DNA from: Candidatus Omnitrophota bacterium
Lineage (GTDB): Bacteria; Omnitrophota; Gorgyraeia; Gygaellales; Profunditerraquicolaceae
NCBI GenBank assembly: GCA_026387455.1
Contig: JAPLLR010000017.1
Coordinates: forward strand, 5,635 to 69,634
Direction: 5' to 3'
DNA: 64,000 nt
Position 1 is the stretch's first letter. Each line of letters opens with the position of its first letter. Both the position numbers and the translations under genes were made by a program. The notes beneath the pieces are model-generated. The model was not told the origin of the DNA. It saw only the letters and a program-made list of their open reading frames with translations, and ran no database searches. Below are positions 7,519-56,190 of this stretch, in pieces.

Positions 7519-9194
7519 AGATATACTGTGCTTTTGGAGTTATCCGAAGTCCGGGGATGCAAAGGAAAGCCCCAGTCAGCCTTCAGATAAAAATCTTTCC
7601 AGGGCTGGAACCGAATCCCCCAGCCCGCGCCCATCAAAGTGTCAGAACCGTGTTCTCCCACCAAAGGACTACGCAGCCAACCCTGGCCGTAATCCCAGAA
7701 CCAAACAAACTGGATCTTATCGCGCAATTTATTATTTTTAGGAATTAAGTACACCGGAGTGCGCCATTCAATATTTACGTTATAGCCGCAGTCTCCCATA
7801 AACTCAAGCTCAGGATACCCGCGCACTGTCTGGGCGCCACCAATATAATATTGTTCACCGGCTACCAGCTTGTCCCCCGAATATTGCCCGCGCGCCGAAA
7901 CCAGCAAAAATGAAGACAGCGGCAGGTTTAATCTCCTGCCCACACTAAGCACATACTTGGTAAACTCACCACCCGAACCTAAGCGGCTTGCGTCAGGATC
8001 GTCTTTACCCAAAGCCCCGGCAAAATCCGGAATGCCAAAATCAGTTTCAAAATTCGCATAGGTCGCGCCCCATGCATCAGAACCATCTAAACTAAAATTC
8101 AGCTTGGCCACGCTTACGTTATCACTTGAAGTAGTGGTGCCCAAAAGATAATTCTTACTGTGTTTGATATCTAAACCGAATCCGCCGTTACCGCGGATAT
8201 TCTCGCTATTAATAAAAGGATGCACCACGTATGTCCCAGCTACCCAGGCCCAGCCGTTGGCATCCAACACTTCAAACTCCCTCACCAGGTCAGTCTTGAC
8301 ATAACTGCCATAGCCCCCGATCCGTGTACCCAGATAATTCACCGGCACGTTATAATCCAGGCTTCCGCCGTTAAGCTTCTCGTTGCTTTTTTGGAACCTG
8401 ACGGTAAATATATCGTCAACGCCAAAGAGATTGTTATTGCTGTATCCAACGCCAAAGCGCTGCTTGCCGGTATATTTTGTTCCATAGGTATTATAGTCTA
8501 AGAAAAAGTGCTGTGGATTCTCGTCCGTAACCTTCAAGACCACATCTGTGGTGTCCTTACGCTCACCAGTCAAAAGCACGGCTTTGACTGTACGGTCGGG
8601 ATTGGTATTCAAGCGGCGCACACTCTTCATCAAGTCCTTGTAAAGTACGGTATCTCCTTCGCGGATATGTAATTTCCAACGCACGTATTCCTTATCAAAA
8701 TATTTCCCGCCTTCGATATTAATAGTCCCGATACAACCTTCGACGACTCGGATCTCTATTGTATTATCGATAATCTTTTGCACCGGCACATATACGTATG
8801 TGGTGATATAGCCTTTAGAGCGGTAGAATTTCTGGATAGCGCTGGCTAGCTCATTGAATTCTTTCAAACCCAGGCGCTTATCCTTATACTGGGCTAATAT
8901 AGGTAAAAAGTCCTCAGGAGTAAAAATAGTGACCCCGTTTAAAACAAACTTGACGACCTTCACCCCACCCTCGGTTTTTTCTTCCACCACCGCTTGAGCA
9001 GGCCGCTCATCCTTTACCTCGATCTTTACCTTTGGCTTGATAAGCCCGGACTTTTCCTCCTGCAGGCGCAGAGTATCTTCCATCTGCTGCTCAATAGCCC
9101 CGGCCTTGGTAGAAGCCGGTGCCTGGGCATAAGACGTGGCAACAACACCGAACAGAAACGCCAGAAATAAAATTGCGGTTATTCTTTTATCCAT
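7494..9194 (-). CDS. TpsB outer-membrane transporter of the two-partner secretion system (ShlB/FhaC/HecB family; POTRA domains plus a 16-strand beta-barrel).
   Basis: ORF 7494..9242; the likely start is M17 (MDKRITAILFLAFLFGVVATSYAQA, a signal peptide). It is about 566 aa, as is FhaC. It carries the conserved loop-6 motif YYIGGAQTVRGYPE of ShlB-type barrels. It sits immediately upstream of tpsA, and its stop overlaps the tpsA start by about 25 nt. Confidence 0.7.
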   Translation of the reverse strand: MDKRITAILFLAFLFGVVATSYAQAPASTKAGAIEQQMEDTLRLQEEKSGLIKPKVKIEVKDERPAQAVVEEKTEGGVKVVKFVLNGVTIFTPEDFLPILAQYKDKRLGLKEFNELASAIQKFYRSKGYITTYVYVPVQKIIDNTIEIRVVEGCIGTINIEGGKYFDKEYVRWKLHIREGDTVLYKDLMKSVRRLNTNPDRTVKAVLLTGERKDTTDVVLKVTDENPQHFFLDYNTYGTKYTGKQRFGVGYSNNNLFGVDDIFTVRFQKSNEKLNGGSLDYNVPVNYLGTRIGGYGSYVKTDLVREFEVLDANGWAWVAGTYVVHPFINSENIRGNGGFGLDIKHSKNYLLGTTTSSDNVSVAKLNFSLDGSDAWGATYANFETDFGIPDFAGALGKDDPDASRLGSGGEFTKYVLSVGRRLNLPLSSFLLVSARGQYSGDKLVAGEQYYIGGAQTVRGYPELEFMGDCGYNVNIEWRTPVYLIPKNNKLRDKIQFVWFWDYGQGWLRSPLVGEHGSDTLMGAGWGIRFQPWKDFYLKADWGFPLHPRTSDNSKSTVYLWAHIDLL

Positions 9195-11786: not shown

Positions 11787-12692
11787 TTAAAACTTATGCT
11801 GGACTAGATAGCGGAATGCGCTAAGGCAGGCTTTGGAGCCTTCCCCGGCAGCAATAATGATCTGTTTCTCCGGAACATCCGTGACATCGCCGGCGGCAAA
11901 TATCCCGGGAATATTAGTTTCGTTACGGCAATTTATAATTATTTCCTGCAGTTGATTTCTTGCTATGGCTTTGGCGAATTCCGAGTTGGGCAGAAGACCT
12001 ATCTCGACAAACACGCCTTGGACGGCAAGGGTTTCCTCTTTTCCTTGCCTCAAAATTTTAATCCCGCTTACAAACTTATCGCCGAGTATCCCGGTCACCT
12101 GAGCGCTGTTTAACACCGTGACCTTGCTATCCACTTCCACCTGCTCGCGCATCACCGCGTCACCACCCAGAGCGTCGGTAATATTAACTAGTGTTACACG
12201 CTTTGCGAACCTTCTCAGCTGCAATACCGCATCCAACGCAGAGTTTCCTCCTCCGATGACCGCTACATCTTTATTAGCGAATATCGGTCCGTCACAGGTA
12301 GCGCAGTAAGTCAGTCCATGGTTCTTGAATTCTTTCTCACCCGTCACGTTCAGCTCTTTGGTCCTTTTTCCGGAAGCGATAATCACAGACCTTGCTTCAT
12401 ATGAGGCCTTGTCAGTAGTAACAATAATGACCTCGCCCGTTTTGCTAATATCCCTGACCACCTCATCCGCCTTAAGCGGAATATCGTATTTACGCATATG
12501 CTCTTCAAACTTGGCAGCCAGCTCCGGGCCGGTAATAAACTGATACCCGGTATAATTCTCGATATCCCCGCTCCAGGCCGCCTGGCCGCCGATATCCTTA
12601 GAGATCACCAGGAATTCAATTTTCTTGCGCGCCGCATAAACTGAGGCAGTGATCCCGGCTGGACCGGCTCCGATAATAATCAAATCATACAT
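11787..12692 (-). CDS. trxB: Thioredoxin-disulfide reductase (pyridine nucleotide-disulfide oxidoreductase).
   Basis: 301 aa. N-terminal FAD motif IIGAGPAG, redox-active CATCDG motif, second GGGNSA dinucleotide-binding motif. Confidence 0.75.
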   Translation of the reverse strand: MYDLIIIGAGPAGITASVYAARKKIEFLVISKDIGGQAAWSGDIENYTGYQFITGPELAAKFEEHMRKYDIPLKADEVVRDISKTGEVIIVTTDKASYEARSVIIASGKRTKELNVTGEKEFKNHGLTYCATCDGPIFANKDVAVIGGGNSALDAVLQLRRFAKRVTLVNITDALGGDAVMREQVEVDSKVTVLNSAQVTGILGDKFVSGIKILRQGKEETLAVQGVFVEIGLLPNSEFAKAIARNQLQEIIINCRNETNIPGIFAAGDVTDVPEKQIIIAAGEGSKACLSAFRYLVQHKF

Positions 12693-12693
12693 T

Positions 12694-12930
12694 TTAAATC
12701 CCTAAAGCGTTCCTGATCTTGCTCACATCGTAACCAACGATAATCACTCCTTCGATATCCAGGACCGGCACGCCCATCTGCCCGGACTTAGCCACCATCT
12801 CTTCAGCAGCTTTTTCATCTTGCCCTACATCAATATCCTCAAAAACGATATTGTTATCTTTTAAAAACTGCTTTGTCCGAATACACCAGGGGCATGTTGG
12901 AGTGCTGTAAACTTTCACTGACTTTGACAT
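12694..12930 (-). CDS. Glutaredoxin-like protein (NrdH/YruB-type, CPWC active site).
   Basis: 78 aa; VKVYSTPTCPWCIRTKQFL...GVPVL thioredoxin-fold signature. Confidence 0.7.
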   Translation of the reverse strand: MSKSVKVYSTPTCPWCIRTKQFLKDNNIVFEDIDVGQDEKAAEEMVAKSGQMGVPVLDIEGVIIVGYDVSKIRNALGI

Positions 12931-12942
12931 CTTCTTCTCTCC

Positions 12943-13419
12943 TTAAGTTCTGGACTTTAAGTCAATAAGCTGTTTTAAATGATGCTGCTCCTGGCGGATC
13001 AATTCATCGATCACTTTTTGGTCATAATCAGGGACGATTTTTTTCATCCCCTCGTAGAAAACAATGGAATCTTCTTCAAACCCGATGCCTCTTTGTATCG
13101 CATCCTCCTTGGTCTTAATTGTCCTTGCGATCTCTTCACCCTTATTTTTCTGAGTAAAGATATGCTCTGCGGCCAGGCTTCTCATGTAAGCGCTGTATTC
13201 ATCAGCATCCAGGCCCTGCGGCTCATATTTTTCAACCTTGTCCAATATCCCCTGAAAAACCTTAACATGCTTCTCTTCTTCTATCGCTAAAAACTCAAAT
13301 ACTTGGCTTGCCGTAGTAGCTTTAAATTGCTTTGCCAACGTATTATAAAAGTCCCTGCCGTTTTTCTCGATCTGTATCCCCAGTTCCACCACTTCACTGG
13401 CAGAAAATATATTTCCCAT
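12943..13419 (-). CDS. Ferritin-like / rubrerythrin-like diiron protein.
   Basis: 158 aa with ExxH-type motifs (LAIEEEKH, LAAEHIF, RQEQHH) typical of rubrerythrin-type four-helix bundles. An AGGAGGG RBS lies immediately upstream. Confidence 0.5.
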   Translation of the reverse strand: MGNIFSASEVVELGIQIEKNGRDFYNTLAKQFKATTASQVFEFLAIEEEKHVKVFQGILDKVEKYEPQGLDADEYSAYMRSLAAEHIFTQKNKGEEIARTIKTKEDAIQRGIGFEEDSIVFYEGMKKIVPDYDQKVIDELIRQEQHHLKQLIDLKSRT

Positions 13420-13473
13420 ATACCCTCCTTGCGCAAAAAGCGCAACACTGGCCTATCCTTTAAGGCCAGGTGT
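13420..13473 (-). promoter_or_regulatory. Conserved structured 5' leader, copy 1. On the mRNA it forms two hairpins directly upstream of the GGAGGG RBS and ATG of the rubrerythrin-like gene.
   Basis: Plus-strand reads accctccttgcgcaaaaagcgcaacactggcctatcctttaaggccaggtgt. TTGCGC-AAAAA-GCGCAA is a perfect hairpin. cactggcc...ggccaggtg forms a second hairpin. The same 55-nt leader recurs at 17680-17734 with a compensatory change. Confidence 0.55.
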
Positions 13474-13507
13474 AGCAGAAAGCTGCACCCCAGCTAAAAG
13501 GTATGCT

Positions 13508-13536
13508 GGGTGCGTCCTTTTTAGGACGCAACACCC
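13508..13536 (-). terminator. Rho-independent terminator candidate after the PNPOx-like gene.
   Basis: gggtgcgtcc-ttttta-ggacgcaacaccc stem-loop, with a U-rich run following on the minus strand. Confidence 0.45.
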
Positions 13537-13559
13537 GCCAATCCTTTATGGCGAGGTAC

Positions 13560-14018
13560 TTACTTAATATTCTTCGGCGTTAAATCCACTATCTCTTCTA
13601 TGTCTATTTCGATCATATATTTAGGGTCAGGCAGAAGCGCTTCCGGATGGGCCTTGTGGCCTTTCTCCTCATGGATATTCCTTAAAAGCCGCTGCGCCAG
13701 CCTCCCGGCAATTTTATCTTCCCAGGCTTTGAGAATATCCGCGGTCAACTCTTCTTTAGACACCAGCCGGGCCTTACCTTTAAGACAGTAACCTGAGAAT
13801 TTATGTTCATTTACCGCGGTAATACTTACGTGGGGATTATGAACCAGATTCTTGTAGGTTTCGGCGTGGTAAACATCCAGAAGAAAGACCTTGCCTTCAA
13901 CTTTAACCTTGATTATATCCTTACAGGCACTGTGGGCATAGCCTTTAGCGTCGATGGTCGAAACGATCACAAACCCCTGATTTGTTAGAAAATTTATTAC
14001 GTCTTGCGAAATCTGCAT
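13560..14018 (-). CDS. Pyridoxamine 5'-phosphate oxidase family (FMN-binding split-barrel) protein.
   Basis: 152 aa; N-terminal pattern VINFLTNQGFVIVSTIDAKGYAH typical of PNPOx-like flavin proteins. Confidence 0.5.
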   Translation of the reverse strand: MQISQDVINFLTNQGFVIVSTIDAKGYAHSACKDIIKVKVEGKVFLLDVYHAETYKNLVHNPHVSITAVNEHKFSGYCLKGKARLVSKEELTADILKAWEDKIAGRLAQRLLRNIHEEKGHKAHPEALLPDPKYMIEIDIEEIVDLTPKNIK

Positions 14019-14022
14019 AGGG

Positions 14023-14202
14023 TTATTCTTTAGGAAGAGTTTTAATCAAATGTTGGAGAAACTCTTTATGCTTTATTTCTTCGGCGACCAGGAAATTAAA
14101 AGTCTCTCTGACCTCGGGAAGCTCGCTGGCAAACTGCTTGTATTTATCTATCGCCACCAGCTCCATGGATAACGCTAAGTTTAACGCCTCAACCGGTCTC
14201 AT
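14023..14202 (-). CDS. Unannotated 59-aa ferritin-like (single ExxH motif) small protein.
   Basis: Hand translation gives MRPVEALNLALSMELVAIDKYKQFASELPEVRETFNFLVAEEIKHKEFLQHLIKTLPKE. The start ATG overlaps the stop region of the flavodiiron gene (GGTTAATAATG). It is below the ORF-track length cutoff. Confidence 0.45.
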   Translation of the reverse strand: MRPVEALNLALSMELVAIDKYKQFASELPEVRETFNFLVAEEIKHKEFLQHLIKTLPKE

Positions 14203-14204
14203 TA

Positions 14205-15398
14205 TTAACCCCCTTTTATCTTTGCGGCAAACTCTTTGCCGAATTCATAGCAGCGTTTTGATTCTGCTTCATCCGGAACATACTTTATCCCAATCCCTGG
14301 CTGGGCCAGAGTCAAACCGGATCTATTAATCAACTCTTCAAGATCCTTTACTGCTCCGCCTGCCCACCCGAATGAACCAAATGCCGCAGCAATCCTGTTT
14401 TTAGGAGTTAACCCTCTGACAAATTCCAGAAACCCCGCCATAGAAGGAAGCATGCTGTTATCGTGCGTGGAAGAACCGAAAATAAACCCTTTGGAATCCA
14501 GCATCTCCTTAATTATCTCTGTGCGATCAGAAGTAGTTACGTCAAATATCTTAACGCTCACTCCGGATTCAAGGATACCATCAGCAATCTTACGCGCCAT
14601 CTTTTCAGTCGAGCCCCACATAGTTTCATAAGCGATCACTACTTTAGGCATGGCTGAATTCTTTGCCCAATAAACGTATTTTTCAACTATTTGCATGGGG
14701 TCCTTGCGCCAGATCACTCCGTGGCTGGGAGCAATTATTTTTATAGGTAGCCCCATTTTTTTGACCTCTTCGATCTTCTTCAAGATAATCACCCCTAATG
14801 GCCAAAGAATATTGCCGTAATATTTTGCCGCCTCATCCCAAAGCGAACACTGATCCACCTCATCAGCAAAACGCTCGGAGGTAGCGAAATGCTGACCAAA
14901 AGCGTCATTAGGCATGAGCAAGGCATCTTCCGGGCAATAAGTAAACATACTATCCGGCCAGTGGATCATGGGGACCTCAAGAAAACTTAAAGTTCTTTTG
15001 CCCAGCTTCAAGGTATCCCCGGTTTTTACTACCTGAAAATCCCAGTTTTCGTAATAGTTTTTAAACAAACCTTCTTTACATTTTTGTGTGCCCAGGACTT
15101 TTGCTTTCGAACAGAGCTTCATTAATTCCGGCAGCGCTCCGGAGTGATCCGTCTCTACGTGGTTAGCGATCACATAATCTATTTTTTCAGGCGGAATTAT
15201 CTGCTTTATATTCTCAATAAGTTCAGCGGAGAATGAGCCTAAAACCGTATCCACCAGAGCGATTTTTTCGTCTATTATCAAATAGGCATTATAGGTAGTG
15301 CCACGCTTAGTAGTATAGGTGTGGCCGTGAAAGGTGCGTACGTTCCAGTCGATCACACCGATAGAGTAGAGGTTATCTAAAATCTTAATTGCGGACAT
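14205..15398 (-). CDS. Flavodiiron protein (FprA / rubredoxin:oxygen oxidoreductase type; metallo-beta-lactamase-like domain plus flavodoxin domain).
   Basis: 397 aa. HxExDH-type diiron motif (ANHVETDHSGALP) in the N-terminal MBL-like domain; C-terminal flavodoxin-like domain (KVVIAYETMWGSTEKMA). Confidence 0.8.
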   Translation of the reverse strand: MSAIKILDNLYSIGVIDWNVRTFHGHTYTTKRGTTYNAYLIIDEKIALVDTVLGSFSAELIENIKQIIPPEKIDYVIANHVETDHSGALPELMKLCSKAKVLGTQKCKEGLFKNYYENWDFQVVKTGDTLKLGKRTLSFLEVPMIHWPDSMFTYCPEDALLMPNDAFGQHFATSERFADEVDQCSLWDEAAKYYGNILWPLGVIILKKIEEVKKMGLPIKIIAPSHGVIWRKDPMQIVEKYVYWAKNSAMPKVVIAYETMWGSTEKMARKIADGILESGVSVKIFDVTTSDRTEIIKEMLDSKGFIFGSSTHDNSMLPSMAGFLEFVRGLTPKNRIAAAFGSFGWAGGAVKDLEELINRSGLTLAQPGIGIKYVPDEAESKRCYEFGKEFAAKIKGG

Positions 15399-15409
15399 TG
15401 CATTCTCCT

Positions 15410-16117
15410 TTAATATCCTTGGAAGTTCTCAGTCACGATCTGCTCTTTAGGTAATAACAGCTCATCACTCAGCATCTTGCGCATAGCCTCTACCATCCCC
15501 GGAGGCCCGCAGAGGAAAAATTTGCGCTCCTTGTAATCAGAAACTTCATTTCTTATGATCGAAGCATTTATATATCCAACCGAGCATTTAAACCCCGGTT
15601 CTGTCTCGCACAATACATGCGCTACCCTCAGTTTAGGGTACATTTTTTGCATGGCGCTTAAGTCGTCCTTAAAGACAATATCCTTAACAGAGCGATTGGA
15701 ATATACCAGCACTATATCAACCCCCAGATTTCTATCCACCACATCCTTGGTGATACTACGTAGCGGAGTTATCCCGATACCTCCGGAAAGAAAGGCGATT
15801 TTTCCAGCAGGATTATCCTCCAACGTAAATTTGCCAAACGGATACTGAATCTGTAATTCGTCCCCCGGCTTCAACGCATCCATAGCTTTTGAAAAATCAC
15901 TCTGGCTTAATTTCTTAGTGAACTCCAGATGGCATTTCTCGGAAGGTGAGCTTGAAATGGATAGATAGTGCTTCAGCTGCGGATTATTTTGCAGGGTGAC
16001 CTGTAATAATTGGCCGGCCTTGAAATTTATGTCTTGAACCCGCTCAACGCGCACGCTTTTGACATTGTAGTTACGCTGGATAATCTCAATTACCTTCGTC
16101 GCTACTTCCGCCGGCAT
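15410..16117 (-). CDS. FNR-like FAD/NAD(P)-binding oxidoreductase, the probable NAD(P)H-dependent reductase partner of the rubredoxin/FDP/SOR chain.
   Basis: 235 aa. Ferredoxin-reductase-type module signatures: LSGGIGITP NAD-binding glycine motif and CGPPGM near the C-terminus. Confidence 0.6.
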   Translation of the reverse strand: MPAEVATKVIEIIQRNYNVKSVRVERVQDINFKAGQLLQVTLQNNPQLKHYLSISSSPSEKCHLEFTKKLSQSDFSKAMDALKPGDELQIQYPFGKFTLEDNPAGKIAFLSGGIGITPLRSITKDVVDRNLGVDIVLVYSNRSVKDIVFKDDLSAMQKMYPKLRVAHVLCETEPGFKCSVGYINASIIRNEVSDYKERKFFLCGPPGMVEAMRKMLSDELLLPKEQIVTENFQGY

Positions 16118-16119
16118 AT

Positions 16120-16971
16120 CTAGAATCCCAATTCATCGATTATTTTCGACATTATAAAATCATTTTCTGTAAGACCGCCTGCAACATGAGTAGTCAGGGT
16201 AATCCTCACCTTATTATAAATTATGGTAATGGTCGGATGATGTCCCTGTTCTTCGGCAATCACCGCAACCAGGTCCAGAAAATACTTGGCCTCTATAAAA
16301 TTCTTAAATTTGAATTCTTTGACCAGCTTTTTATCCTCAACCAACTCCCAGCCGCTGCGCTGGGCGAGAAGTTTCTCGATTTTATCTTTTGGTAAAGCTG
16401 CAACTGCGCCCTCACAAGGCTTGCATTTTACAGGAGAAGTTTCCTGCACAGCTATCGAGGGATTCTTTAAAACTTCTGCCAAACTCTTAAGCACATCATC
16501 GTAATCAGGGGATTTGGTTATTTCTGTAACCAGCTGAAAATAACGCACCACATCAGCCTTATCCACAATGATCACGCTGCGGCCCAGAAGATTCAGTTCC
16601 TTTATAAGCAACCCATAGTTAATCCCAAACGAAGTAGTCTGGTAGTCAGAAACTACCTGGACATTCTTAATACCGAATGTCTCACAAAAGCGCTTCTGGG
16701 CAAAAGGAAGATCCTTGCTGATTCCGACTATCACCACGTCAGAAAATAGGCCCGTAGCGCGCTTGTTGAATTCTTTAACCTGCAGGTCGCAAACCGGAGT
16801 ATCAATAGATGGGAAGGATGTGATGACCTTGATTTTACCTTTGAAATCCTCAAGGGTAATCGGCAAAAGGTCCTGTGAAACGACCCTGAATCCCGGAGCA
16901 CTAGCGCCGACCCTGACAGGCCTGCCCACCAGCGTCAGCGGATTTCCCTGAAAAGTTACTTTACCTGACAT
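16120..16971 (-). CDS. tpx: Fusion protein. N-terminal thiol peroxidase (Tpx, atypical 2-Cys peroxiredoxin) joined to a C-terminal pterin-4a-carbinolamine dehydratase (PCD/DCoH)-like domain.
   Basis: Residues 1-165 align along their length with E. coli Tpx (VTFQGNPLTL..., SFPSIDTPVCDLQ, DLPFAQKRFC, VTEITKSPDYDDVL). Residues about 200-283 carry the PCD signature (GW...FKFKNF..A..F...VA..AEEQGHHPTITIIYNKVRITLTTHVAGGLTENDF). Confidence 0.7.
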   Translation of the reverse strand: MSGKVTFQGNPLTLVGRPVRVGASAPGFRVVSQDLLPITLEDFKGKIKVITSFPSIDTPVCDLQVKEFNKRATGLFSDVVIVGISKDLPFAQKRFCETFGIKNVQVVSDYQTTSFGINYGLLIKELNLLGRSVIIVDKADVVRYFQLVTEITKSPDYDDVLKSLAEVLKNPSIAVQETSPVKCKPCEGAVAALPKDKIEKLLAQRSGWELVEDKKLVKEFKFKNFIEAKYFLDLVAVIAEEQGHHPTITIIYNKVRITLTTHVAGGLTENDFIMSKIIDELGF

Positions 16972-16980
16972 AGCCGCTTC

Positions 16981-17139
16981 CTATAGTTTCCCGAACATAT
17001 CTTTGCCCACTCCGCAATCAGGGCAGACCCATGTGTCCGGCAATGCCGCAAAGCTTGTTCCGGGCTTTATGCCTTGAGTATCATCTCCTACAGCAGGGTC
17101 ATAGATATATCCGCATACAGTGCACTTATATTTATCCAT
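16981..17139 (-). CDS. rub: Rubredoxin (52 aa), not in the ORF track.
   Basis: Hand translation gives [52 protein letters not shown]. It has the two CxxCG knuckles and the rubredoxin aromatic core. Confidence 0.85.
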
Positions 17140-17157
17140 GATATCTCCTTCCTTCGC

Positions 17158-17553
17158 TTACGCTATTTCAATTTTTTTAGAGCTTTGCCAGAGTCCGTGA
17201 ATATTACAATATGAAACAGCTAGAAGTGTACCGCTCTTCTCGGTCTTAAAGACACAGATAGCCTCAGGGTTAGTGTAAATAGTGCTGGTGCTTGGGCCCT
17301 GAGTCGACTCCCCGTGCGCGCCAAACTCAAATCTACCTATCTGGTATGGAAACTTCTCTCCGTCAGCCTGAAAATAAAGCGCTGCCCAGCTGATATGATG
17401 CTCGGTGGTATTGGGATGAGCTATCTCTTTACCGATAGTAACAACTATCTTAACCGCATCGCCTTTTTTTATTTTATCAGGGGCGTCGATCACCGGAACA
17501 TGTTTTTCGGTTTTCCAGTCCGCCGTCTGCAAAAGATCTTTTAATTCTGACAT
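17158..17553 (-). CDS. sor: Superoxide reductase (desulfoferrodoxin / neelaredoxin family).
   Basis: 131 aa. EKHVPVI motif and His/Cys ligands (HPNTTEHHISW, YCNIHGLW) of the SOR iron-binding domain. Confidence 0.75.
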   Translation of the reverse strand: MSELKDLLQTADWKTEKHVPVIDAPDKIKKGDAVKIVVTIGKEIAHPNTTEHHISWAALYFQADGEKFPYQIGRFEFGAHGESTQGPSTSTIYTNPEAICVFKTEKSGTLLAVSYCNIHGLWQSSKKIEIA

Positions 17554-17610
17554 GATTGCCTCCTAAAAATGCGTCCGGGCACAGCCTAAAAGCCATGCCC
17601 GGACATAAGC

Positions 17611-17679
17611 TTATTTCTTCTTTTTCTTTGCCTTTTTCTTGGGTTTCTTAGCCTTGCATCCGCAGCTTCCACAAGCCAT
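17611..17679 (-). CDS. Candidate 22-aa Cys-rich, Lys-rich microprotein.
   Basis: ATG preceded by GGAGGG and by leader copy 2. Translation is MACGSCGCKAKKPKKKAKKKKK. Confidence 0.3.
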   Translation of the reverse strand: MACGSCGCKAKKPKKKAKKKKK

Positions 17680-17734
17680 ACGACCCTCCTTGCGCAGAAA
17701 GCGCAACACTGGCTTATCCTATAAAGCCAGGTGT
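17680..17734 (-). promoter_or_regulatory. Conserved structured 5' leader, copy 2, upstream of the Cys-rich microORF and the sor-rub-tpx-FDP gene string.
   Basis: acgaccctccttgcgcagaaagcgcaacactggcttatcctataaagccaggtgt. The GCGCAA hairpin is retained. The first hairpin changes from ggcc/ggcc to ggct/agcc, a compensatory C:G to U:A change. Confidence 0.55.
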
Positions 17735-17761
17735 TTCACCCTTTACAGCCCCATTATACCC

Positions 17762-19138
17762 CTATTTTAAAATATCTGCCATGTCTTTTTCCGCAGTGGT
17801 AATAAGCTTAAGATCAAAGTTATCCTGCAGCACCTTAAACACATTCGGCGAAATAAACGCCGGAGGTGTCGGGCCTACGCGGATACCCTTAATGCCTAAA
17901 TGCAAAAGGGTCAACAGAATAGCCACTGCCTTTTGCTCAAACCAGGATAACACCAGAGTAAGCGGAAGGTCATTCACCCCGCAATTAAACACCTTGGATA
18001 AAGCCAGCGCCACCTGGATAGCGGAATAAGCGTTATTACACTGTCCGATATCAATTAAACGCGGAATCCCTTCGATCTCACCGAAATCAAGCTTGTTAAA
18101 GCGATACTTTCCACAAGCCAGAGTAAAGATCACGCAATCTTTGGGCACTCTCTCAGCAAGCTCAGTGTAGTAATTTCTTCCCGGCTTTGCTCCATCGCAT
18201 CCACCGATAAGGAAGAAGTGCTTGATCTTTCCGGCCTTGACCAGCCCGACGACCTTATCCGCTAACCCCACAGGGGTAGCCCTTCCTGTACCTTTTAACC
18301 CCACAGGGGTAGCCCTTCCTGTACCTTTTAAGGAAGGGGCTAAGGAAGGGGCTAACCCCAGAATTGCTGTATGATGAAAACCAGTAAGAATCTTTTTTCC
18401 GAGAGTCTCAGGTAAAGAAACCAGAGATTTAGCCTTAGCAATCAGCTCTTTAAAATCCCTATTTTTCAGATGCTTTGCCCCTGTCACTCCGGTGATCCCA
18501 ATAGTGAACAGTTTGTCTAAATAAGAATTATCCGGAGGAATCAATACGCAGTTGGTAGTAGCTAATATAGCTCCGCCAAAAACACTAAACTCTTTCTTCT
18601 GCTCCTGCCAGGCGCCACCATAATTACCCACCAGGTGCTTAAATTTCTTTAATTCCGGATACGCATGCGCCGGAAGCATTTCGCTATGCGTATAAACATT
18701 AACCCCCGTCCCTTCAGTCTGTTTCAATAATTCATACAGGTCCAAAAGATCATGTCCGGTAACTAAAATTCCAGGGCCGGCTTTGGTTCCGGTATCAACC
18801 GCAGTCGGCACAGGATTACCAAACTTAACCGTATGCGCCTTATCCAATAGCTCCATAGTACGTAAGTTCATCTCTCCGCACTTAAGGACTTCTTGAATAT
18901 AATCGTTAAGGTCAAAACTGACGTTAGTTACGGTCTTAAAGAGCGCCTCGTGCATAAAACCATCCACCACTTCATCCTTAGCCCCTAATTCGCGCGCATG
19001 ATAAGCGTATGCCGCGATACCCTTTAATCCAAAAAGTAAAATATCCTGCAAGCTCTGAATATCAGGGTCTTTGCCGCAAACACCTATCTTTGTGCAACCG
19101 CTTCCACCTGCTGTTTGTTCGCATTGATAACAAAACAT
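17762..19138 (-). CDS. hcp: Hybrid cluster protein (hydroxylamine reductase, Hcp) carrying an in-frame insertion of about 30 aa.
   Basis: N-terminal MFCYQCEQTAGGSGCTKIGVCGK cysteine motif. ADKVVGLVKAGKIKHFFLIGGCDGAKPGRNYYTE and the C-terminal region match Hcp. The segment LAPSLAPSLKGTGRATPVGLKGTGRATPVGL interrupts the conserved block. Confidence 0.8.
   Translation of the reverse strand: MFCYQCEQTAGGSGCTKIGVCGKDPDIQSLQDILLFGLKGIAAYAYHARELGAKDEVVDGFMHEALFKTVTNVSFDLNDYIQEVLKCGEMNLRTMELLDKAHTVKFGNPVPTAVDTGTKAGPGILVTGHDLLDLYELLKQTEGTGVNVYTHSEMLPAHAYPELKKFKHLVGNYGGAWQEQKKEFSVFGGAILATTNCVLIPPDNSYLDKLFTIGITGVTGAKHLKNRDFKELIAKAKSLVSLPETLGKKILTGFHHTAILGLAPSLAPSLKGTGRATPVGLKGTGRATPVGLADKVVGLVKAGKIKHFFLIGGCDGAKPGRNYYTELAERVPKDCVIFTLACGKYRFNKLDFGEIEGIPRLIDIGQCNNAYSAIQVALALSKVFNCGVNDLPLTLVLSWFEQKAVAILLTLLHLGIKGIRVGPTPPAFISPNVFKVLQDNFDLKLITTAEKDMADILK
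18261..18354. repeat. Palindromic repeat element inserted in-frame inside hcp: two tandem 32-nt units, then two 12-nt inverted units, flanked by the direct repeat gctaacccca.
   Basis: ccccacaggggtagcccttcctgtacctttta occurs twice (18266-18297 and 18299-18330), then aggaaggggcta occurs twice (18331-18354). gctaacccca is present at 18261-18270 and again at 18351-18360. A related copy, ccccacaggggtaggccttcc...aggaagagcc, lies at 51961-52000. Confidence 0.7.
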
Positions 19139-19151
19139 AATTTTTCCCCTT

Positions 19152-19222
19152 TAATTTGCCCTCGTTTCCTTCGAGGCAAATTACCCCGAAGCGTATCCCG
19201 AAAATATCGAAGAGATTTTCGG
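19152..19222. repeat. Composite hairpin element of the conserved-loop family: hairpin A (aatttgccctcg...cgaggcaaatt) followed by hairpin B (cccgaaaat-ATCGAAGAG-attttcggg).
   Basis: Perfect inverted repeats read directly from the sequence. The element lies between the 4Fe-4S/zinc-ribbon genes and the hcp start. Confidence 0.6.
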
Positions 19223-19243
19223 GATGATTACGCGAGGGGTTAA

Positions 19244-19474
19244 TTATTTCTTCCCCTTCAACTCTTTCCACTTCTTTTCGCCGATACACTCTTTTGCTGC
19301 TTTACACCAGTCCACGCAGGAAGGTAACCTTTCCCTGCAGATCAAGCCCTTACACTTAGGGCATTTTACTTTTATCTCGTCAGAAAAAATCTCCGCCTGA
19401 TACCCGCAATCCGGGCATTTAATAATTTCAGATTTAATATTTCGATCATCCTGGCCGGGGCATTTCTGGATCAC
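19244..19474 (-). CDS. Small Cys-rich zinc-ribbon protein.
   Basis: 76 aa with multiple CxxC pairs (CPDCGYQ...CPKCKGLIC...CVDWC). Confidence 0.4.
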   Translation of the reverse strand: MIQKCPGQDDRNIKSEIIKCPDCGYQAEIFSDEIKVKCPKCKGLICRERLPSCVDWCKAAKECIGEKKWKELKGKK

Positions 19475-20202
19475 TTTAATCTATCTCCTTTAATACTGAT
19501 AATCACGTCACAAAAAGACACAATCTTTCCCGAAGCGCTTATGGCCTGCTGAATAACCGGCATCAATCCAAAGCAGCAGGGCACCTCCATATGCGCGTAG
19601 GTGATGGATTTAATATTGTTGTGCTCAATAATCTGTGTAATTTTTTGCGTATACAACCCGATATCGTCGAATTTAGGGCAACCCACCAGTAGTACCTTAC
19701 CTTTCAACAAATCCTGGTGAAAGTTAGCATAGGCAAAAGGCACGCAATCCGCAGCGATCAGAATATCCGCATTATCCAGAAACGGTACGAACACCGGAAC
19801 CAACATCAGCTGTATCGGCCATTGACCTAATTGCGACTCTTGAGCCCCTGCCACAGGCGCATGAGCAGTAAATGGTTCTTCCTTTTTAAACTCCATAACC
19901 TTGGCCCCCGGGCATTCGGCATGGCCATGAGCATGATGCGCAATAATCGTATTCTTGCCCTGCTTAACAATATTCTCCATCACACGGCACTCATCATACT
20001 TCTCGGCTTCCCGCTCTTCGATAGTGATCGCTGCCTGCGGACAGTAACCAATACAAGCGCCAAGTCCATCGCAGAACAAATCACTGATCAAACGCGCCTT
20101 ATTGTCAACGATCTGGATCGCGCCCTCAGGACAATTGGGGATACACTGACCGCAACCGTTACACTTAGCCTCATCAATCTTAATAATCTTTCTTTTCGCC
20201 AT
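19471..20202 (-). CDS. 4Fe-4S dicluster ferredoxin-domain protein with a Cys-rich C-terminal domain.
   Basis: CNGCGQCIPNCP and CDGLGACIGYCP 4Fe-4S motifs at the N-terminus; 243 aa. Confidence 0.6.
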   Translation of the reverse strand: MAKRKIIKIDEAKCNGCGQCIPNCPEGAIQIVDNKARLISDLFCDGLGACIGYCPQAAITIEEREAEKYDECRVMENIVKQGKNTIIAHHAHGHAECPGAKVMEFKKEEPFTAHAPVAGAQESQLGQWPIQLMLVPVFVPFLDNADILIAADCVPFAYANFHQDLLKGKVLLVGCPKFDDIGLYTQKITQIIEHNNIKSITYAHMEVPCCFGLMPVIQQAISASGKIVSFCDVIISIKGDRLK

Positions 20203-20216
20203 GATAATCTCCTTAT

Positions 20217-20672
20217 CTAAAACAATGAAGCAATGGTAACCAGCCTTAACTCCTTAAGTACATACTGTTCTATTTTATCGATTTTCTTCTTAAGCGCGCA
20301 TCTTTTTATGTTAGGACAGACTACTTTTTTAAAAAGACATTCATTCAAACGAAATTTCCCCTGAAAGATCTCCATCAGTCCCAATAAGGAAATGCTCTCT
20401 GCGGACCTAGCCAACAGAAATCCTCCCCCCCTACCTTTATAGGCCACAAGCACACCTTCTTTATGCAATATCTGAAGGATCTTTCTTAAAAATGGTTTGG
20501 GGATTTTAAGCTCTTTAACTAAATCCCCTACATTGACGATCTCGTTTTTTCTACCCAGCATAAAACATAAAGCCCTTAACGCGTAATCCGTATCTCTGGT
20601 GATTAATTTCACCCCGCCCTTCCTTTCTAAAGACCCTCGCCCTACTTTAGGAAGGGCGGGGTTCATTCTCAC
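20217..20672 (-). CDS. Rrf2-family transcriptional regulator (NsrR/IscR-like), probably Fe-S cluster-binding. The true start is probably internal to the listed ORF.
   Basis: KLITRDTDYALRALCFML winged-helix N-terminus. Three clustered Cys (ECLFKKVVCPNIKRC) as in NsrR/IscR. It lies adjacent to hcp, the classical NsrR target. Confidence 0.7.
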   Translation of the reverse strand: MRMNPALPKVGRGSLERKGGVKLITRDTDYALRALCFMLGRKNEIVNVGDLVKELKIPKPFLRKILQILHKEGVLVAYKGRGGGFLLARSAESISLLGLMEIFQGKFRLNECLFKKVVCPNIKRCALKKKIDKIEQYVLKELRLVTIASLF

Positions 20673-20797
20673 AAAAAAATGCTACTGGGCAGTTTTACGT
20701 CTTACCCAGGACAAAATACTACAACCCTCTTTGCAGTGGGCGACCGGGCGCAGCATATACTTAACAGTAATATCCATGGCAGAGCTCCTTTCAGAGT

Positions 20798-20820
20798 AAT
20801 GATACCACATCAGTATCATT
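20798..20820. promoter_or_regulatory. Candidate operator: perfect dyad AATGATAC-n7-GTATCATT upstream of the Rrf2 regulator gene.
   Basis: aatgataccacatcagtatcatt, with 8-bp arms that are exact reverse complements. Confidence 0.35.
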
Positions 20821-20857
20821 TGTCAAGAAAAAAATCCTCTATTCTTTAAATATCCTA

Positions 20858-21205
20858 TTACTGTGCTTTAATCTCTTTCATTAGTTTGCCGCTAATACTG
20901 CAGTAGGCTTCCACTGAGAGCAAATCTCCAGACTTAATATCGGGGGAAGTGTAGGTAACGGTCTGGGAAAAGTAGCTATCCTGCTTTTTAAACTTTAGCT
21001 CCGCTATTTCTTTTCCGTTTAATCCGATGTCAACTTTATTTATATAATGCTGAGTGGGATTGCTTACGTTATGCTTTATCACGGCAGTCAAGGTCTTGGT
21101 AGCGGCATCATATGTGATGATGATATCTGACGGAGGATGGGCGTATGCCACAGAAGCGCTCAGCAGAGAAACCAACAATAGGATAGATACAACTATACTT
21201 CTCAT
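20858..21205 (-). CDS. Small secreted protein of unknown function.
   Basis: Signal peptide MRSIVVSILLLVSLLSASVAYA; about 115 aa. Confidence 0.4.
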   Translation of the reverse strand: MRSIVVSILLLVSLLSASVAYAHPPSDIIITYDAATKTLTAVIKHNVSNPTQHYINKVDIGLNGKEIAELKFKKQDSYFSQTVTYTSPDIKSGDLLSVEAYCSISGKLMKEIKAQ

Positions 21206-26949: not shown

Positions 26950-27060
26950 TTTTCCCATAGAATTTGCCCTCGTTTAAGTTGTTTGCAAATTCATCCCGAA
27001 GCCTTGGCCAAAATTATGGAACAGAATTTTGGCCAGTTTAGGCGAGGGACGAGTGAGTCC
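26950..27060. repeat. Composite hairpin element (family member) with a 10-bp perfect stem ggccaaaatt-ATGGAACAG-aattttggcc.
   Basis: Its flanks (gcaaattcatcccgaagcc, gagggacgagtg) are shared with the copies at 19150-19250 and 29130-29215. Confidence 0.55.
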
Positions 27061-27064
27061 TTTT

Positions 27065-29098: not shown

Positions 29099-29129
29099 GT
29101 AACACCTCCTTATTGAGCCTTAATTTTAC

Positions 29130-29215: not shown

Positions 29216-29253
29216 ACAATTTACCACAAACCCGCCCACTTGTCAAGACAGCT

Positions 29254-42610: not shown

Positions 42611-42662
42611 AAATTTTCCTTTGCCCTTCCTTTATAGGTACAGGAAGGCCTGCCCTTGTGGG

Positions 42663-43736
42663 CTAAGCTCTGCGAATTCCTTTTAAGGTCAACACAAACT
42701 CATCGCGGTTATCGGCAAAATTCCCAGCCTCTTCTTCGCTGATCTTGCCTGCTTTGACCAGTTTAACCAAGGACTGGTCAAATGAACACATCCCGAACAG
42801 CTCGCCATCCTCGATATACTGCTGCATATCCTGAACCTTACCCTCGCGGATCAGACGGCTGATAGTAGGAGTCAAAAGCATAGACTCATAAGCTGGCACT
42901 CTTCCGTTTGCATTGTGCGCCGGGACCAGACGCAAAGATATGACCCCTTTTAAAATAGTGGCCAGCTGATTCCTGGTCTCCTGATGTTGATGCGGCGGGA
43001 AGAAATTAATGATCCTCTCTACACTTTGGCTAGCGTTGACGGTATGCAGAGTGCTCAAAACCAGTACCCCGGTCTCCGCAGCGGTGATCGCCGCCTGCAT
43101 GGTATCATAATCACGGATATTCCCGATGAAAATAACATCCGGACTTTGAAGCGTAAATGCTTTTAAGGCAGCCGCATAGGACTGCACATCCAGGCCCAAT
43201 TCGCGCTGATTGATCAGGGATTTATTATCCTTAAAAGTGAATTCAATGGGCTCTTCGACGGTAAGAATATGTTTATTGCAATTGCTATTAATATATTCAA
43301 TCATGCTGGCGATTGTGGTAGACTTGCCGCTGCCCATAGTGCCGGTCAGCAAAACCAGGCCTCTTTTTTCCAGGGAGAGCTTTTTTAGCACGTCCGCCGG
43401 CAACATCAGGTCCTCAAAGTTCTGAACTACGTTTTGTATGCTCCTGATGACAATGGAAGGCCAGTTGCGCTGCATGAAAATGCTTATCCTGAACCTGCGG
43501 TCAAGACCTTCAAAGTAATAGGCAAAGTCAATATCCATATTCTCTTTAAAGAGAGCGCGCTGTCTGGGGTTCATCAGCTCTTCGGTGGCCGCCATCACGT
43601 CGTCGACGCTTAAGACAATATCCGACATCTGCACCACCTGGCCGTCTATCCTTAAACGCGGGGTGCCGCCGGCGCGAAAGAAAAGGTCTGAAGCGCTCTT
43701 TGCCACCATCTCTTTAAGCAAATCTTTGATTTTCAT
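42663..43736 (-). CDS. pilT: Type IV pilus retraction ATPase PilT.
   Basis: 357 aa; Walker A GTMGSGKST; PilT-type N-terminus and Asp/His boxes. Confidence 0.75.
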   Translation of the reverse strand: MKIKDLLKEMVAKSASDLFFRAGGTPRLRIDGQVVQMSDIVLSVDDVMAATEELMNPRQRALFKENMDIDFAYYFEGLDRRFRISIFMQRNWPSIVIRSIQNVVQNFEDLMLPADVLKKLSLEKRGLVLLTGTMGSGKSTTIASMIEYINSNCNKHILTVEEPIEFTFKDNKSLINQRELGLDVQSYAAALKAFTLQSPDVIFIGNIRDYDTMQAAITAAETGVLVLSTLHTVNASQSVERIINFFPPHQHQETRNQLATILKGVISLRLVPAHNANGRVPAYESMLLTPTISRLIREGKVQDMQQYIEDGELFGMCSFDQSLVKLVKAGKISEEEAGNFADNRDEFVLTLKGIRRA

Positions 43737-45334: not shown

Positions 45335-45384
45335 AATCTACTATTAACTGTCCCTGACTATGCTTTCACTAAACACTAACTTAT

Positions 45385-51831: not shown

Positions 51832-51960
51832 AGTTCCACCTCCCTCTACTTATCCCTACAGTTGTACACTTCGGAAATTTCTTTGAAATTTCCTTGTAAC
51901 TGCAGGGATTAAGTTCGGGCATATAAGTTATGTCGTCCATCCATTGGACTCCATAACTTA

Positions 51961-52000
51961 CCCCACAGGGGTAGGCCTTCCCATCCTATAAAGGAAGAGC
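51961..52000. repeat. Intergenic copy of the hairpin element that is inserted in hcp.
   Basis: ccccacaggggtaggccttcc-catcctataa-aggaagagcc. Confidence 0.5.
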
Positions 52001-52070
52001 CTTATGCCCTCACTTAAATAGACGTAAAGGAAGGCAAAATCTAACAGAAAATCTTAGGATATTTGCGACT

Positions 52071-55956: not shown

Positions 55957-56190
55957 TTGCGCTTTCTGCTACACCCAACTTTATAGCACCTTGGCATATA
56001 GGGTTGCCAAGTGCATCCCCTGCGGGATGGAAAAGTTGGTGTTACACTTTCTGCTTTACACCCGGCCTTAGCCCCTTCCTTAAAAGGTATAGGAAGGGCT
56101 ACCCCTCTGGGGTTATAGGATAGGCCGGTGTGCCGCTTTCTGCTACACCCAACTTTATAGGAAAAGTTGGTGTTCCGCTTTCTGCGTAAG
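55957..56190. repeat. Iteron-like array: four copies of c[ga]ctttctgc[t][a]acaccc, two of them arranged as an inverted pair (acacccaacttt/aaagttggtgt).
   Basis: Copies at about 55965, 56046, 56136 and 56175. It lies immediately upstream of the RBS of the RHH-like gene. Confidence 0.5.

Follow-up and report, generated by a model that had tools for sequence, protein, structure and literature searches.

MITEs of the IS5 and PIF-Harbinger (Tourist-like) type are non-autonomous elements that favour A+T-rich TWA targets and produce a 3-bp TWA/TNA duplication. The substrates of HUH enzymes, as known for IS608 and the E. coli RAYT, are imperfect hairpins with a bulged base, and to our knowledge matching TWA trinucleotides on both flanks are not a feature of IS200/IS605 elements or REPs. 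The small dispersed repeats (SDRs) of cyanobacteria, 21–27 nt long, are reportedly confined to heterocystous cyanobacteria; they are said to form dissimilar families that adopt one secondary structure with compensatory changes, to be nested in themselves and in other small repeats, and to be moved by an unknown machinery. We know of no description of a 3-bp duplication or of recurrent in-frame insertion into enzymes for SDRs. Rickettsia palindromic elements (RPEs; Ogata et al., 2000; reviewed in PMC10969869) are interspersed palindromes that lie in frame in unrelated housekeeping genes, where the encoded peptide is tolerated, and also between genes. GTAG REPs and intragenic REPs (Di Nocera et al., 2013, PMC3733652), together with the REP/RAYT and REPIN systems (PMC3116915), are 20–40-nt imperfect palindromes with GTAG at the stem; many GTAG REP copies are intergenic, some donate a TAG stop codon, and intragenic copies, single or grouped, encode ~20–30 aa (PMC3733652).

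The window analysed here, the whole 64,000-nt stretch of an Omnitrophota contig, carries in its hcp gene an in-frame insert that we read, with a probability of about 0.8, as a pair of F1 copies, F1 being our name for a very small, non-autonomous mobile DNA element. The gene is:

17762..19138, minus strand: hcp (class III hybrid cluster protein/hydroxylamine reductase), an ORF of 458 aa, the 30-aa insert included

The product matched Pfam PF03063 (Prismane) at E=4e-139, the match being broken into two stretches, and shares 100% identity with a Candidatus Omnitrophica MAG protein at NCBI. Minus the insert it measures 428 aa, which agrees with class III (~430 aa, without the class I/II insertion), and all residues invariant across 62 aligned Hcp sequences are kept. 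The extra DNA is exactly 90 nt, or 30 codons, in frame, and the minus-strand ORF reads across it as HHTAILGL, APSLAPSLKGTGRATPVGLKGTGRATPVGL, ADKVV. The earlier note had allowed for native sequence of equal length in Hcp orthologues, which the alignment (A3) did not bear out: the insert stands opposite 30 gap columns in 61 of the 61 other Hcp sequences, and the nearest, insert-free orthologues are 93–95% identical outside it. At the DNA level, empty sites were found in two related genomes (ATC TTA GGA CTA GCG at L001 and ATC CTG AGC TTG GCG at L010), both of which carry F1 at other loci. A search of JGI metagenomes with a 26-mer fitting both filled and empty hcp alleles gave 0 matches. In the AF2 model of the window protein (mean pLDDT 79), whose best PDB match by Foldseek was the class III HCP 7e0l (TM 0.89), insert residues 263–290 were modelled as low-confidence coil with a pLDDT of 25–37. 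The model thus predicts a class III fold left intact despite the insert, which probably forms a tolerated, disordered loop between helix 256–260 and helix 292–301.

The insert is a nested pair, A1[A2 B2]B1, in which one F1 copy lies within the loop of another. Its parts are:

18263..18265, plus strand: TAA, left copy of the outer-element target-site duplication, which the coding strand reads as TTA (Leu)
18266..18295, plus strand: 5′ part of the outer element, with mini-hairpin CCCC-ACA-GGGG, 5′ arm TAGCCCTTCC and loop TGTACCTTT
18296..18298, plus strand: TAA in the outer-element loop, where the inner element inserted; also the left TAA of the inner duplication
18299..18340, plus strand: the inner element, complete at 42 nt, CCCCACAGGGGTAGCCCTTCCTGTACCTTTTAAGGAAGGGGC (nhmmer E=6e-18; covariance model 76.8 bits, E=5e-21)
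18341..18343, plus strand: TAA, right copy of the inner-element duplication
18344..18352, plus strand: 3′ arm of the outer element, GGAAGGGGC, which pairs with 18277–18287 in DNA and RNA folds
18353..18355, plus strand: TAA, right copy of the outer-element duplication

Each of the two copies is therefore bordered by a duplicated TAA, and single F1 copies hold only one TAA at the loop position (..CCTTTTAAGGAAGG..). The same 90 nt can be divided into two perfect 33-nt copies (18263–18295 and 18296–18328) and two perfect 12-nt copies (18329–18340 and 18341–18352), the core of the latter, GGAAGGGGC, being complementary to part of the 33-nt unit. The earlier note had described two 32-nt units followed by two inverted 12-nt units; the repeats, their positions and the 12-nt length hold, but the long unit measures 33 nt, and the arrangement is a nested one. 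The perfect 10-bp direct repeat that it had placed at the junctions is likewise present, as GCTAACCCCA at 18261–18270 and again at 18351–18360, but only 3 bp of it (TAA) are the real duplication, the other 7 bp being native hcp sequence that resembles the F1 ends (GC-TAA-CCCCA).

F1 units are 40–43 nt long, most commonly 42 nt, and open with a mini-hairpin of 4 bp, CCCC-ASA-GGGG, behind which comes a 10-bp hairpin, TAGNCCTTCC/GGAAGG-G-N'CTA, which has one bulged G on its 3′ arm. A GTAG tag stands immediately 5′ of the stem (GGGGTAG, then NCCTTCC..GGAAGG(G)N'CTA). The element ends are CCCCACAGG.. and ..GGAAGGGGC, with the palindrome internal and only CCCC/GGGG inverted; the lack of terminal inverted repeats beyond this is unusual for a DDE transposase substrate. 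The shuffle z-scores of the folded insert were weak (RNA -1.0, DNA -2.3), because runs of G and C fold well even when shuffled, and covariation was relied on instead. The stem position N:N' takes all four Watson–Crick pairs (CG 43, GC 28, AU 6, UA 3, non-pair 2), both sides have changed in 12 of 14 pairs, and 95% of the alignment cells are paired, compared with 42–75% when the partner is slid. Together with its duplication, F1 measures 45 nt (15 codons), and stop codons are missing from three of the six frames. Searches of Rfam returned no family at gathering score for the whole window and none at E up to 1 for 13300–20900.

Within the window, the motif CCCCACAGGGGTAGCC occurs four times with up to 3 mismatches, against 0.30 expected, a number reached in 0 of 100 shuffles. 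Further F1 copies, and units of sister families, are:

56068..56115, minus strand: canonical single F1 copy with TAA flanks, intergenic (covariance model 77 bits)
51958..52004, plus strand: diverged F1 copy of the TAGGCC subfamily, intergenic (covariance model 57.8 bits, E=2e-15)
42622..42666, minus strand: diverged F1 copy between a T2SSE-like gene and prfB (covariance model 37 bits, E=4e-9)
17692..17733, minus strand: sister-family 42-nt unit with bulged hairpin CACCTGGCT../..AGCCAGTG and mini-hairpin GCGC-TTTCT-GCGC (weak model match 17689–17736)
13420..13559, minus strand: three tandem sister-family units that fill an intergenic spacer and end at a Shine–Dalgarno sequence (weak model match 13429–13474)
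55984..56189, minus strand: sister-family units clustered around the copy at 56 kb (weak model matches 55984–56030 and 56144–56189)

The second of these confirms the related copy that the earlier note had seen at 51961–52000; the F1 copies at 56068–56115 and 42622–42666 had escaped it. The copy at 42622–42666 contains the TAG stop codon of the upstream gene, and a hairpin of a sister family (CACCGGCCT..AGGCCGGGTG) holds that at 56068–56115 in its loop. Nesting is also seen among the sister families, the unit at 55984–56030 lying in the loop of another sister unit, and the unit at 17692–17733 stands directly 5′ of the Shine–Dalgarno sequence of a small ORF that follows hcp. Units with the stems ACCGGCCT, ACCAACTT, ACTTGGCA, GCTCGCCC and ACCCGCCA have one architecture in common: a mini-hairpin, then a 6–7-bp stem, a bulged G and 2–4 further bp. 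The sister families, which share this architecture with F1, are without the GTAG tag. The bulged hairpin appears to be kept by compensatory changes and is common to families with unrelated stems, which suggests that it serves in recognition by an enzyme.

Outside the window, F1 was located at 24 loci in three related genomes and at 70 loci in metagenomes, and the covariance model gave 119 F1 matches in 503 kb of related Omnitrophota DNA. The copies are mostly intergenic and strongly biased in orientation (29 vs 4). F1 copies lie inside F1 copies because the loop itself holds TTTAAGG, and such nesting was found at hcp and at six further loci (L009, L010, L019, L061, L070 and L074). At L009 and L019 the inner and outer copies come from different subfamilies, and every arm pairs with its own partner; the copies are bordered by matching TAA/TAA or TTA/TTA, the exception being the outer L009 copy (TAA/TTA). 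Copies also abut with one TWA shared, which yields tandem arrays with a 45-nt period; the orphan 3′ arms found at L012, L014 and L091 show F1 arrays to be reshaped by slippage and deletion as well. A composite of a sister unit plus F1 provides an orthologous pair, filled in a related genome (L002) and empty at window position 31614. In-frame F1 copies were found in at least five other conserved genes, those for an RsmD-like protein, a B12 radical SAM protein, a TPR protein, PGI/PMI and FTHFS, and the in-frame copies use all three open frames. The B12 radical SAM gene has 1 or 2 F1 units at one site across related contigs, and one in-frame case is present in four related contigs (L040, L042, L049 and L060). 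A database search with the F1-encoded peptides in all three frames returned two candidates, a yield limited by the word index. The larger F1-containing repeat of the Ga0210051 contigs was rejected as an autonomous element, as it is only ~200–220 nt long and non-coding. The viral contigs searched held 0 F1 copies, which gives no sign of phage carriage.

The flanks of F1 were compared over 78 single units with distinct flanks. The flanking trinucleotides were concordant at 68 of these 78 independent sites (TAA/TAA 45, TTA/TTA 23), as against 2 sites with TAA/TTA and 0 with TTA/TAA (Fisher p=1.7e-16). The rule holds in ~25 unrelated flank contexts and inside every subfamily. These matching trinucleotides indicate a 3-bp TWA target-site duplication. 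A 2-bp (TA) and a 4-bp duplication were both rejected, since the constancy of the F1 ends across TAA- and TTA-flanked copies needs 3-bp TWA.

The Pfam scan of the ~60 window ORFs found no transposase, recombinase, integrase or HUH protein, and no PF01797; the case for F1 mobility therefore rests on insertion polymorphism and on the duplication, and not on an identified enzyme. None of 26 F1 copies in three genomes forms the end of a longer element. The GTAG directly 5′ of the stem (GGGGTAG, CCC) could make F1 a repetitive extragenic palindrome that a Y1 HUH transposase, encoded at another site of the genome, spreads in single-stranded form, a reading that we consider unlikely. It would account for the bulged, imperfect hairpin, a property of HUH substrates, and for the strong orientation bias, and the mostly intergenic location, the one copy that donates a TAG stop and intragenic copies encoding ~15–30 aa all fit GTAG REPs (PMC3733652). 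However, TWA on both flanks is not a known trait of IS200/IS605 elements or REPs, the sister families share the architecture but not GTAG, and F1 has an additional 5′ mini-hairpin. Moreover, a crude regex for the RAYT-like motif pair (HUH plus YxxNP) found no such ORF in 508 kb of related DNA, alongside the missing PF01797 match in the window.

The lack of a transposase among the ~60 window ORFs is also compatible with templated copying, by microhomology or gene conversion, in which the hcp strand, in the course of replication or repair and independently of any transposase, would have left its own template at GCTAACCCCA for a nested F1 pair at another genomic locus and returned at the same 10-mer. 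The perfect 10-bp direct repeat at the junctions argues for this, and, given the native hcp match to the F1 ends over 7 nt beyond TAA, a copy templated in this way would give the same outcome; a GGGGC-TAA-CCCC junction is present at many donor loci (tandem arrays and 'class-2' contexts), and L019 offers a possible donor-type nested pair, which is 91% identical over 94 nt to the hcp insert. Such copying nevertheless leaves unexplained both the TWA rule in ~25 contexts without other homology to the F1 ends and the insertion at the same loop position in unrelated host hairpins, and we regard it as distinctly unlikely for hcp.

It is very improbable that a metagenome assembler spliced the 90 nt into hcp. 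The source is a MAG contig from short reads, the element is repetitive and the insert-bearing hcp is found in one database sequence only; against this, the insert is shorter than a read with a longest repeat of 33 nt, both junctions follow the TAA rule with the frame exactly kept, and the same nesting recurs in independent assemblies that were made with different programs (contigs named k141_ and NODE_, and JGI contigs). That F1 also lies in frame in five further genes, in one case in four related contigs, shows the phenomenon to be a biological one. Independent duplication in tandem of two stretches of native hcp sequence (33 nt and 12 nt), the recent duplication that the earlier note had entertained, has next to no probability even though Tandem Repeats Finder gives two perfect tandem arrays, because all orthologues show the 30-codon gap, 0 of the 90 nt are native to hcp and the same sequence is interspersed elsewhere.

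Insertion of a mobile element therefore remains the preferred reading, and the orthologue alignment, the ~120 other copies, the target-site duplication and the structure model together uphold the earlier note's proposal of a MITE/REP-type mobile hairpin tolerated in a loop of Hcp. F1 sits at 5′-TWA-3′, with the trinucleotide standing on both sides, and the bulged hairpin would be the feature recognised by a putative trans-acting enzyme. The hcp sequence ..CTG GGG TTA GCG.. received an element at its Leu codon, TTA; either a second copy then entered the loop of the first, or a ready-made 87-nt nested pair moved whole. The frame stayed open, with a gain of 30 residues, because 45 nt are 15 codons and three of six frames are stop-free. 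It is quite possible, although somewhat less likely than not, that F1 and its sister units represent an undescribed superfamily of ~42-nt mobile Omnitrophota modules, which would be defined by shape (mini-hairpin plus bulged-G hairpin) and not by terminal repeats, make a 3-bp TWA duplication, nest in each other's loops, pile up in one orientation just 5′ of ribosome-binding sites, be built repeatedly into enzymes as 15-codon cassettes, and be mobilised by a kind of enzyme not yet tied to such substrates.

The known cases of in-frame colonisation of genes by palindromic repeats come mostly from Rickettsia and a small number of proteobacteria, and the phenomenon is now seen in an uncultivated phylum. 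The geometry of F1, with 15 codons and half of the frames open, suits survival inside genes, and its copies constitute a natural experiment on the tolerance of peptide insertion in enzymes such as Hcp, FTHFS and radical-SAM proteins. With its bulged hairpin, TWA target and self-nesting, F1 is also a clean substrate for finding the mobilising enzyme. Such elements inflate the predicted lengths of MAG proteins, and can mislead annotation and homology-based modelling.

Compared with the known systems, F1 is like a MITE in being short, non-coding and multi-copy, in its insertion polymorphism between related genomes and in the 3-bp TWA duplication, but it has neither the size (100–600 bp) nor the terminal inverted repeats (at least 10 bp, matching a parent IS) of classical MITEs, and no DDE transposase was seen in the window. 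Like GTAG REPs, it is an imperfect palindrome with GTAG at its 5′ foot, many intergenic copies and a case of TAG stop donation; it differs from REP/RAYT systems in the target-site duplication, the extra 5′ mini-hairpin and sister families without GTAG. The Pfam scan of the window and the regex over 508 kb found no RAYT. Insertion without a target-site duplication, as by the single-strand HUH mechanism, does not describe F1 with its TWA on both flanks, and its copies are nested or head-to-tail, whereas REPINs and BIMEs are typically inverted dimers. With SDRs it shares a length below 100 nt, nesting in itself, sister families of dissimilar sequence with one structure, and covariation within F1, but it measures 42 nt and its host phylum is Omnitrophota, the comparison with SDRs being by description and not by sequence. 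As with RPEs, copies lie in frame in unrelated genes (Hcp, RsmD-like, B12 radical SAM, PGI/PMI, FTHFS and TPR proteins) and also between genes; unlike RPEs (~100–150 bp, Rickettsia), to which it has no sequence similarity, F1 is 42 nt long, about one-third to one-half of an RPE, resides in Omnitrophota, makes a 3-bp TWA duplication and nests in itself. F1 is thus an unusually small new variant beside RPEs, intragenic REPs and cyanobacterial SDRs.

The repeats concerned lie in one gene:

17762-19138, minus strand: hcp, hybrid cluster protein of 458 aa (ORF; Pfam Prismane, E=4e-139)

On the plus strand, positions 18261-18360 read gc TAA CCCCACAGGGGTAGCCCTTCCTGTACCTTT TAA CCCCACAGGGGTAGCCCTTCCTGTACCTTT TAA GGAAGGGGC TAA GGAAGGGGC TAA cccca, and, within the window, a 16-mer core was counted four times vs 0.3 expected. 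Repeat finders recovered both repeat pairs that the earlier note had described here, as perfect duplicates of 33 nt (32 nt in that note) and 12 nt; the 10-mer GCTAACCCCA, noted there as flanking direct repeats, is present at both insert ends, with TAA as its only duplicated part. A homologue search matched the window Hcp at 100% identity to a Candidatus Omnitrophica MAG protein; the 119 homologues that follow have lengths of 428-441 aa. Alignment of 62 orthologues confirmed the insertion site: the other 61 sequences, including relatives with 93-95% identity outside the gap, all show a gap of 30 columns, placed precisely between ..HHTAIL and GLADK... At the DNA level, the uninterrupted site was found in two loci from related genomes, L001 (ATC TTA GGA CTA GCG) and L010 (ATC CTG AGC TTG GCG); both genomes lack the hairpin element, hereafter F1, at the hcp site yet carry it elsewhere, and window 13.4-20.8 kb is syntenic with L010 at 83-91% identity. 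The alignment and the uninterrupted sites thus indicate that the 90-nt stretch is an insertion.

Canonical F1 units are 40-43 nt in length, most commonly 42 nt, and comprise three parts:

Part 1: mini-hairpin CCCC-ASA-GGGG
Part 2: 5' arm TAGNCCTTCC
Part 3: 8-13-nt loop, usually with a TTTAA end, then 3' arm GGAAGG-G-N'C with one bulged G

In a scan covering one genome per species, three Omnitrophota-type MAGs yielded 24 loci with 26 occurrences of the 21-mer CCCCASAGGGGTAGCCCTTCC; a metagenome scan added 70 loci, and a covariance model counted 119 copies in 503 kb. These loci are metagenomic and some possibly redundant, although flanks were de-duplicated, and the copy sets were collected by sequence patterns fixing most stem positions. 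Of the stem positions in the aligned copies, 95% were paired vs 42-75% with the partner slid, in an alignment whose fitting to the model favours structure, and in 12 of 14 pairs both partners had changed at least once. The free stem position N:N', where covariation is independent of the fitting, showed all four Watson-Crick pairs (CG 43, GC 28, AU 6, UA 3, non-pairs 2). Rfam searches over the whole window and over 13300-20900 returned no family matching F1 elements.

The trinucleotides flanking 78 distinct-flank units were TAA/TAA in 45, TTA/TTA in 23, TAA/TTA in 2 and TTA/TAA in 0 (Fisher p=1.7e-16 for concordance). Because this matching of TAA or TTA (TWA) holds across ~25 otherwise unrelated flank contexts and in every stem subfamily, it is not inherited with the subfamily, and we read it as a 3-bp TWA target-site duplication. 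The native hcp target would be GC-TAA-CCCCA (plus) or CTG GGG TTA GCG (coding), and the remaining 7 bp of the 10-bp repeat appear to be native sequence resembling the element-element junction ..GGGGC-TAA-CCCCA... This likeness could reflect chance or target preference; TAA-CCCC is a common F1 target context (18/83). A microhomology-templated origin of the hcp insert, which we consider improbable, would fit this likeness too.

As to the insertion of F1 units, single copies have one loop TAA, ..CCTTT-TAA-GGAAGG.., and the hcp layout is gc-TAA-[A1..CCTTT-TAA-[A2..B2]-TAA-B1]-TAA-cccca, where A1/B1 and A2/B2 are the 5' part and 3' arm of an outer and an inner F1, respectively. The hcp insert is thus a whole F1 unit at the loop TAA of a second F1, with a separate duplication for each. 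Nested copies with unlike partners were found in L009 and L019, with inner arms TAGTCC/GGGACTA or TAGCCC/GGGGCTA and outer F1 from another subfamily; since inner and outer arms there pair with their own partners, two tandem duplications are ruled out. Head-to-tail arrays of 45-nt period with one TWA in common occur in L037, L042, L046 and L063, and others carry orphan 3' arms (L012, L014, L091); therefore, slippage and deletion also shape F1 arrays.

F1 plus its duplication spans 45 nt, or 15 codons, with three of six frames stop-free, all of them in use within real genes:

Reverse-complement frame 0, peptide LAPSLKGTGRATPVG: Hcp
Reverse-complement frame 2, peptide SPFLKR..GYPSGV: RsmD-like methyltransferase (L007)
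Forward frame 1, peptide NPTGVALP..KEGA: B12 radical-SAM enzyme, TPR protein (L085), PGI/PMI (L087), formate-tetrahydrofolate ligase (L089)

The B12 radical-SAM gene carries, at the same site, one unit in L049/L060 and two in L040/L042, and the formate-tetrahydrofolate ligase gene has two of different subfamilies. Given these in-frame copies in several other genes, the hcp case is one instance of a recurrent process. In the ligase gene (L089, 1606-1698), the two adjoining units have TAA borders in common. The second is a hybrid that links F1 with its sister families (other ~42-nt units of F1-like architecture with different stems): its big hairpin is of F1 type, and its mini-hairpin, TCC-AGAAA-GGA, has the loop type found in those families.

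In an AlphaFold2 model of Hcp built from the 62 sequences (mean pLDDT 79), insert residues 263-290 form a coil of low confidence (pLDDT 25-37) without secondary structure between helices 256-260 and 292-301, in line with the surface loop that the earlier note had considered possible. The remainder superposes on class III HCP 7e0l (TM 0.89) and D. vulgaris HCP 1e2u (TM 0.86), the insert flanks align to 1e2u residues ~382-385 (HMMER), and columns invariant across the 62 sequences are, by definition, retained. The insert is thus probably a tolerated, surface-exposed loop, as judged from the model.

F1 copies are chiefly intergenic, and between co-directional genes 29 of 33 put the reverse complement in the mRNA, as in hcp (p=1e-5). 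Many sit in the loop of a sister unit with unrelated stems (ACCGGCCT, ACCAACTT, ACTTGGCA, GCTCGCCC and others), in which a mini-hairpin is followed by a stem of 6-7 bp, then a bulged G and another 2-4 bp. Weak matches of the F1 model in the window fall exactly on sister units, which occupy short spacers and often end at the next gene's Shine-Dalgarno (13420-13559, 17692-17733). Orthologous comparison showed an 87-nt composite, a sister unit with F1 in its loop: L002 has it, window 31614 lacks it, and its borders are precise. In another population, represented by Ga0210051 and related metagenome contigs (L029, L043, L044, L058, L062, L064, L081, L082, L084), TAGACC-subfamily F1 with TAA flanks is embedded in a larger non-coding repeat of ~200-220 nt spread over many contigs, and is a passenger in it.

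The hcp gene belongs to a long co-directional oxidative/nitrosative stress island (11787-20672):

Thioredoxin-reductase-like, glutaredoxin, rubrerythrin, PNPOx-like, flavodiiron protein, FNR-like reductase
Thiol peroxidase fused to pterin-4a-carbinolamine dehydratase, rubredoxin, desulfoferrodoxin
hcp, small Cys-rich ORF, 4Fe-4S protein, Rrf2

Directly after hcp, a very small ORF rich in Cys and Lys, MACGSCGCKAKKPKKKAKKKKK (17611-17679, minus), conserved in L010, has a strong Shine-Dalgarno and a terminator-like hairpin downstream. Rrf2, which regulates the hcp cluster, probably starts at GTG 20612; a perfect 14-bp inverted repeat, ACCCCGCCCTTCCT / AGGAAGGGCGGGGT with a 24-nt loop (20588-20662), lies immediately upstream of that codon and overlaps it, and would occlude the Shine-Dalgarno-like AGGAAGGG. 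At the orthologous site, L010 instead has a sister unit containing two nested copies of F1. A 5'-leader module, possibly a regulatory or promoter-proximal element, recurs before several genes (19139-19243, 26960-27064, 29099-29253, 56961-57155) in the order CGAAAAT-N9-ATTTTCG palindrome (or variant), GCTTCGGGG-TAA/TAC, TTTGCC..GGCAAA hairpin and ribosome-binding site; F1 favours its TAA as a target in other genomes, and before hcp this TAA is empty.

Elsewhere in the window, within 42496-42666 (minus), prfB (release factor 2; ORF0 start ATG 42610) has the classical +1 programmed frameshift site AGGGGG TAT CTT TGA C (42538-42553). The spacer between prfB and the T2SSE-like gene upstream is filled by a diverged F1 (42622-42666), which includes that gene's TAG stop. 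Ahead of the prfB ATG, no Shine-Dalgarno-like sequence occurs other than the 3' arm AAGGAAGGG of this F1. Another repeat family of ~150-310 nt (45384-45693; 49765-50069, inverted; 52071-52211), with copies 72-83% identical, also occurs in L011; one copy adjoins a diverged F1 (51958-52004), and short ORFs overlapping the family had no Pfam match. A c-di-GMP-I-UAU riboswitch (RF03168; 61729-61805, minus; 67.7 bits, barely over the gathering score) precedes a small transglutaminase-like ORF (61208-61705). A two-partner secretion pair (1-9242, minus) comprises a ShlB/FhaC-type transporter and a TpsA-like protein of >2500 aa with a TPS domain and internal repeats (~300-1500, 2966-3693), which runs off the window.

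No transposase or recombinase was found in the window, no RAYT-like motif pair in 508 kb, and no F1 copy in viral contigs. F1 would be non-autonomous, integrated by a trans-acting enzyme recognising the bulged hairpin, and for the integration step we infer that this enzyme would cut TWA with a 3-nt stagger. TWA duplication is known from IS5/PIF-Harbinger elements, which F1 resembles in this respect, but F1 is without terminal inverted repeats. Elhai is said to have described, in 2008, cyanobacterial ultra-small self-nesting repeats with a common structure. GTAG beside the F1 stem and the bulged hairpin recall substrates of REP/RAYT (PMC3733652) and IS200/IS605 systems, whereas the duplication speaks against such a mechanism. 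Palindromic elements inserted in frame are well documented in Rickettsia, as RPEs (PMC10969869), and among intragenic REPs that encode 20-30 aa (PMC3733652). A literature search returned no report of such elements for Omnitrophota; what is new in F1 is that a unit of 42 nt combines self-nesting with TWA duplication, a 15-codon geometry and recurrent uptake into enzymes.
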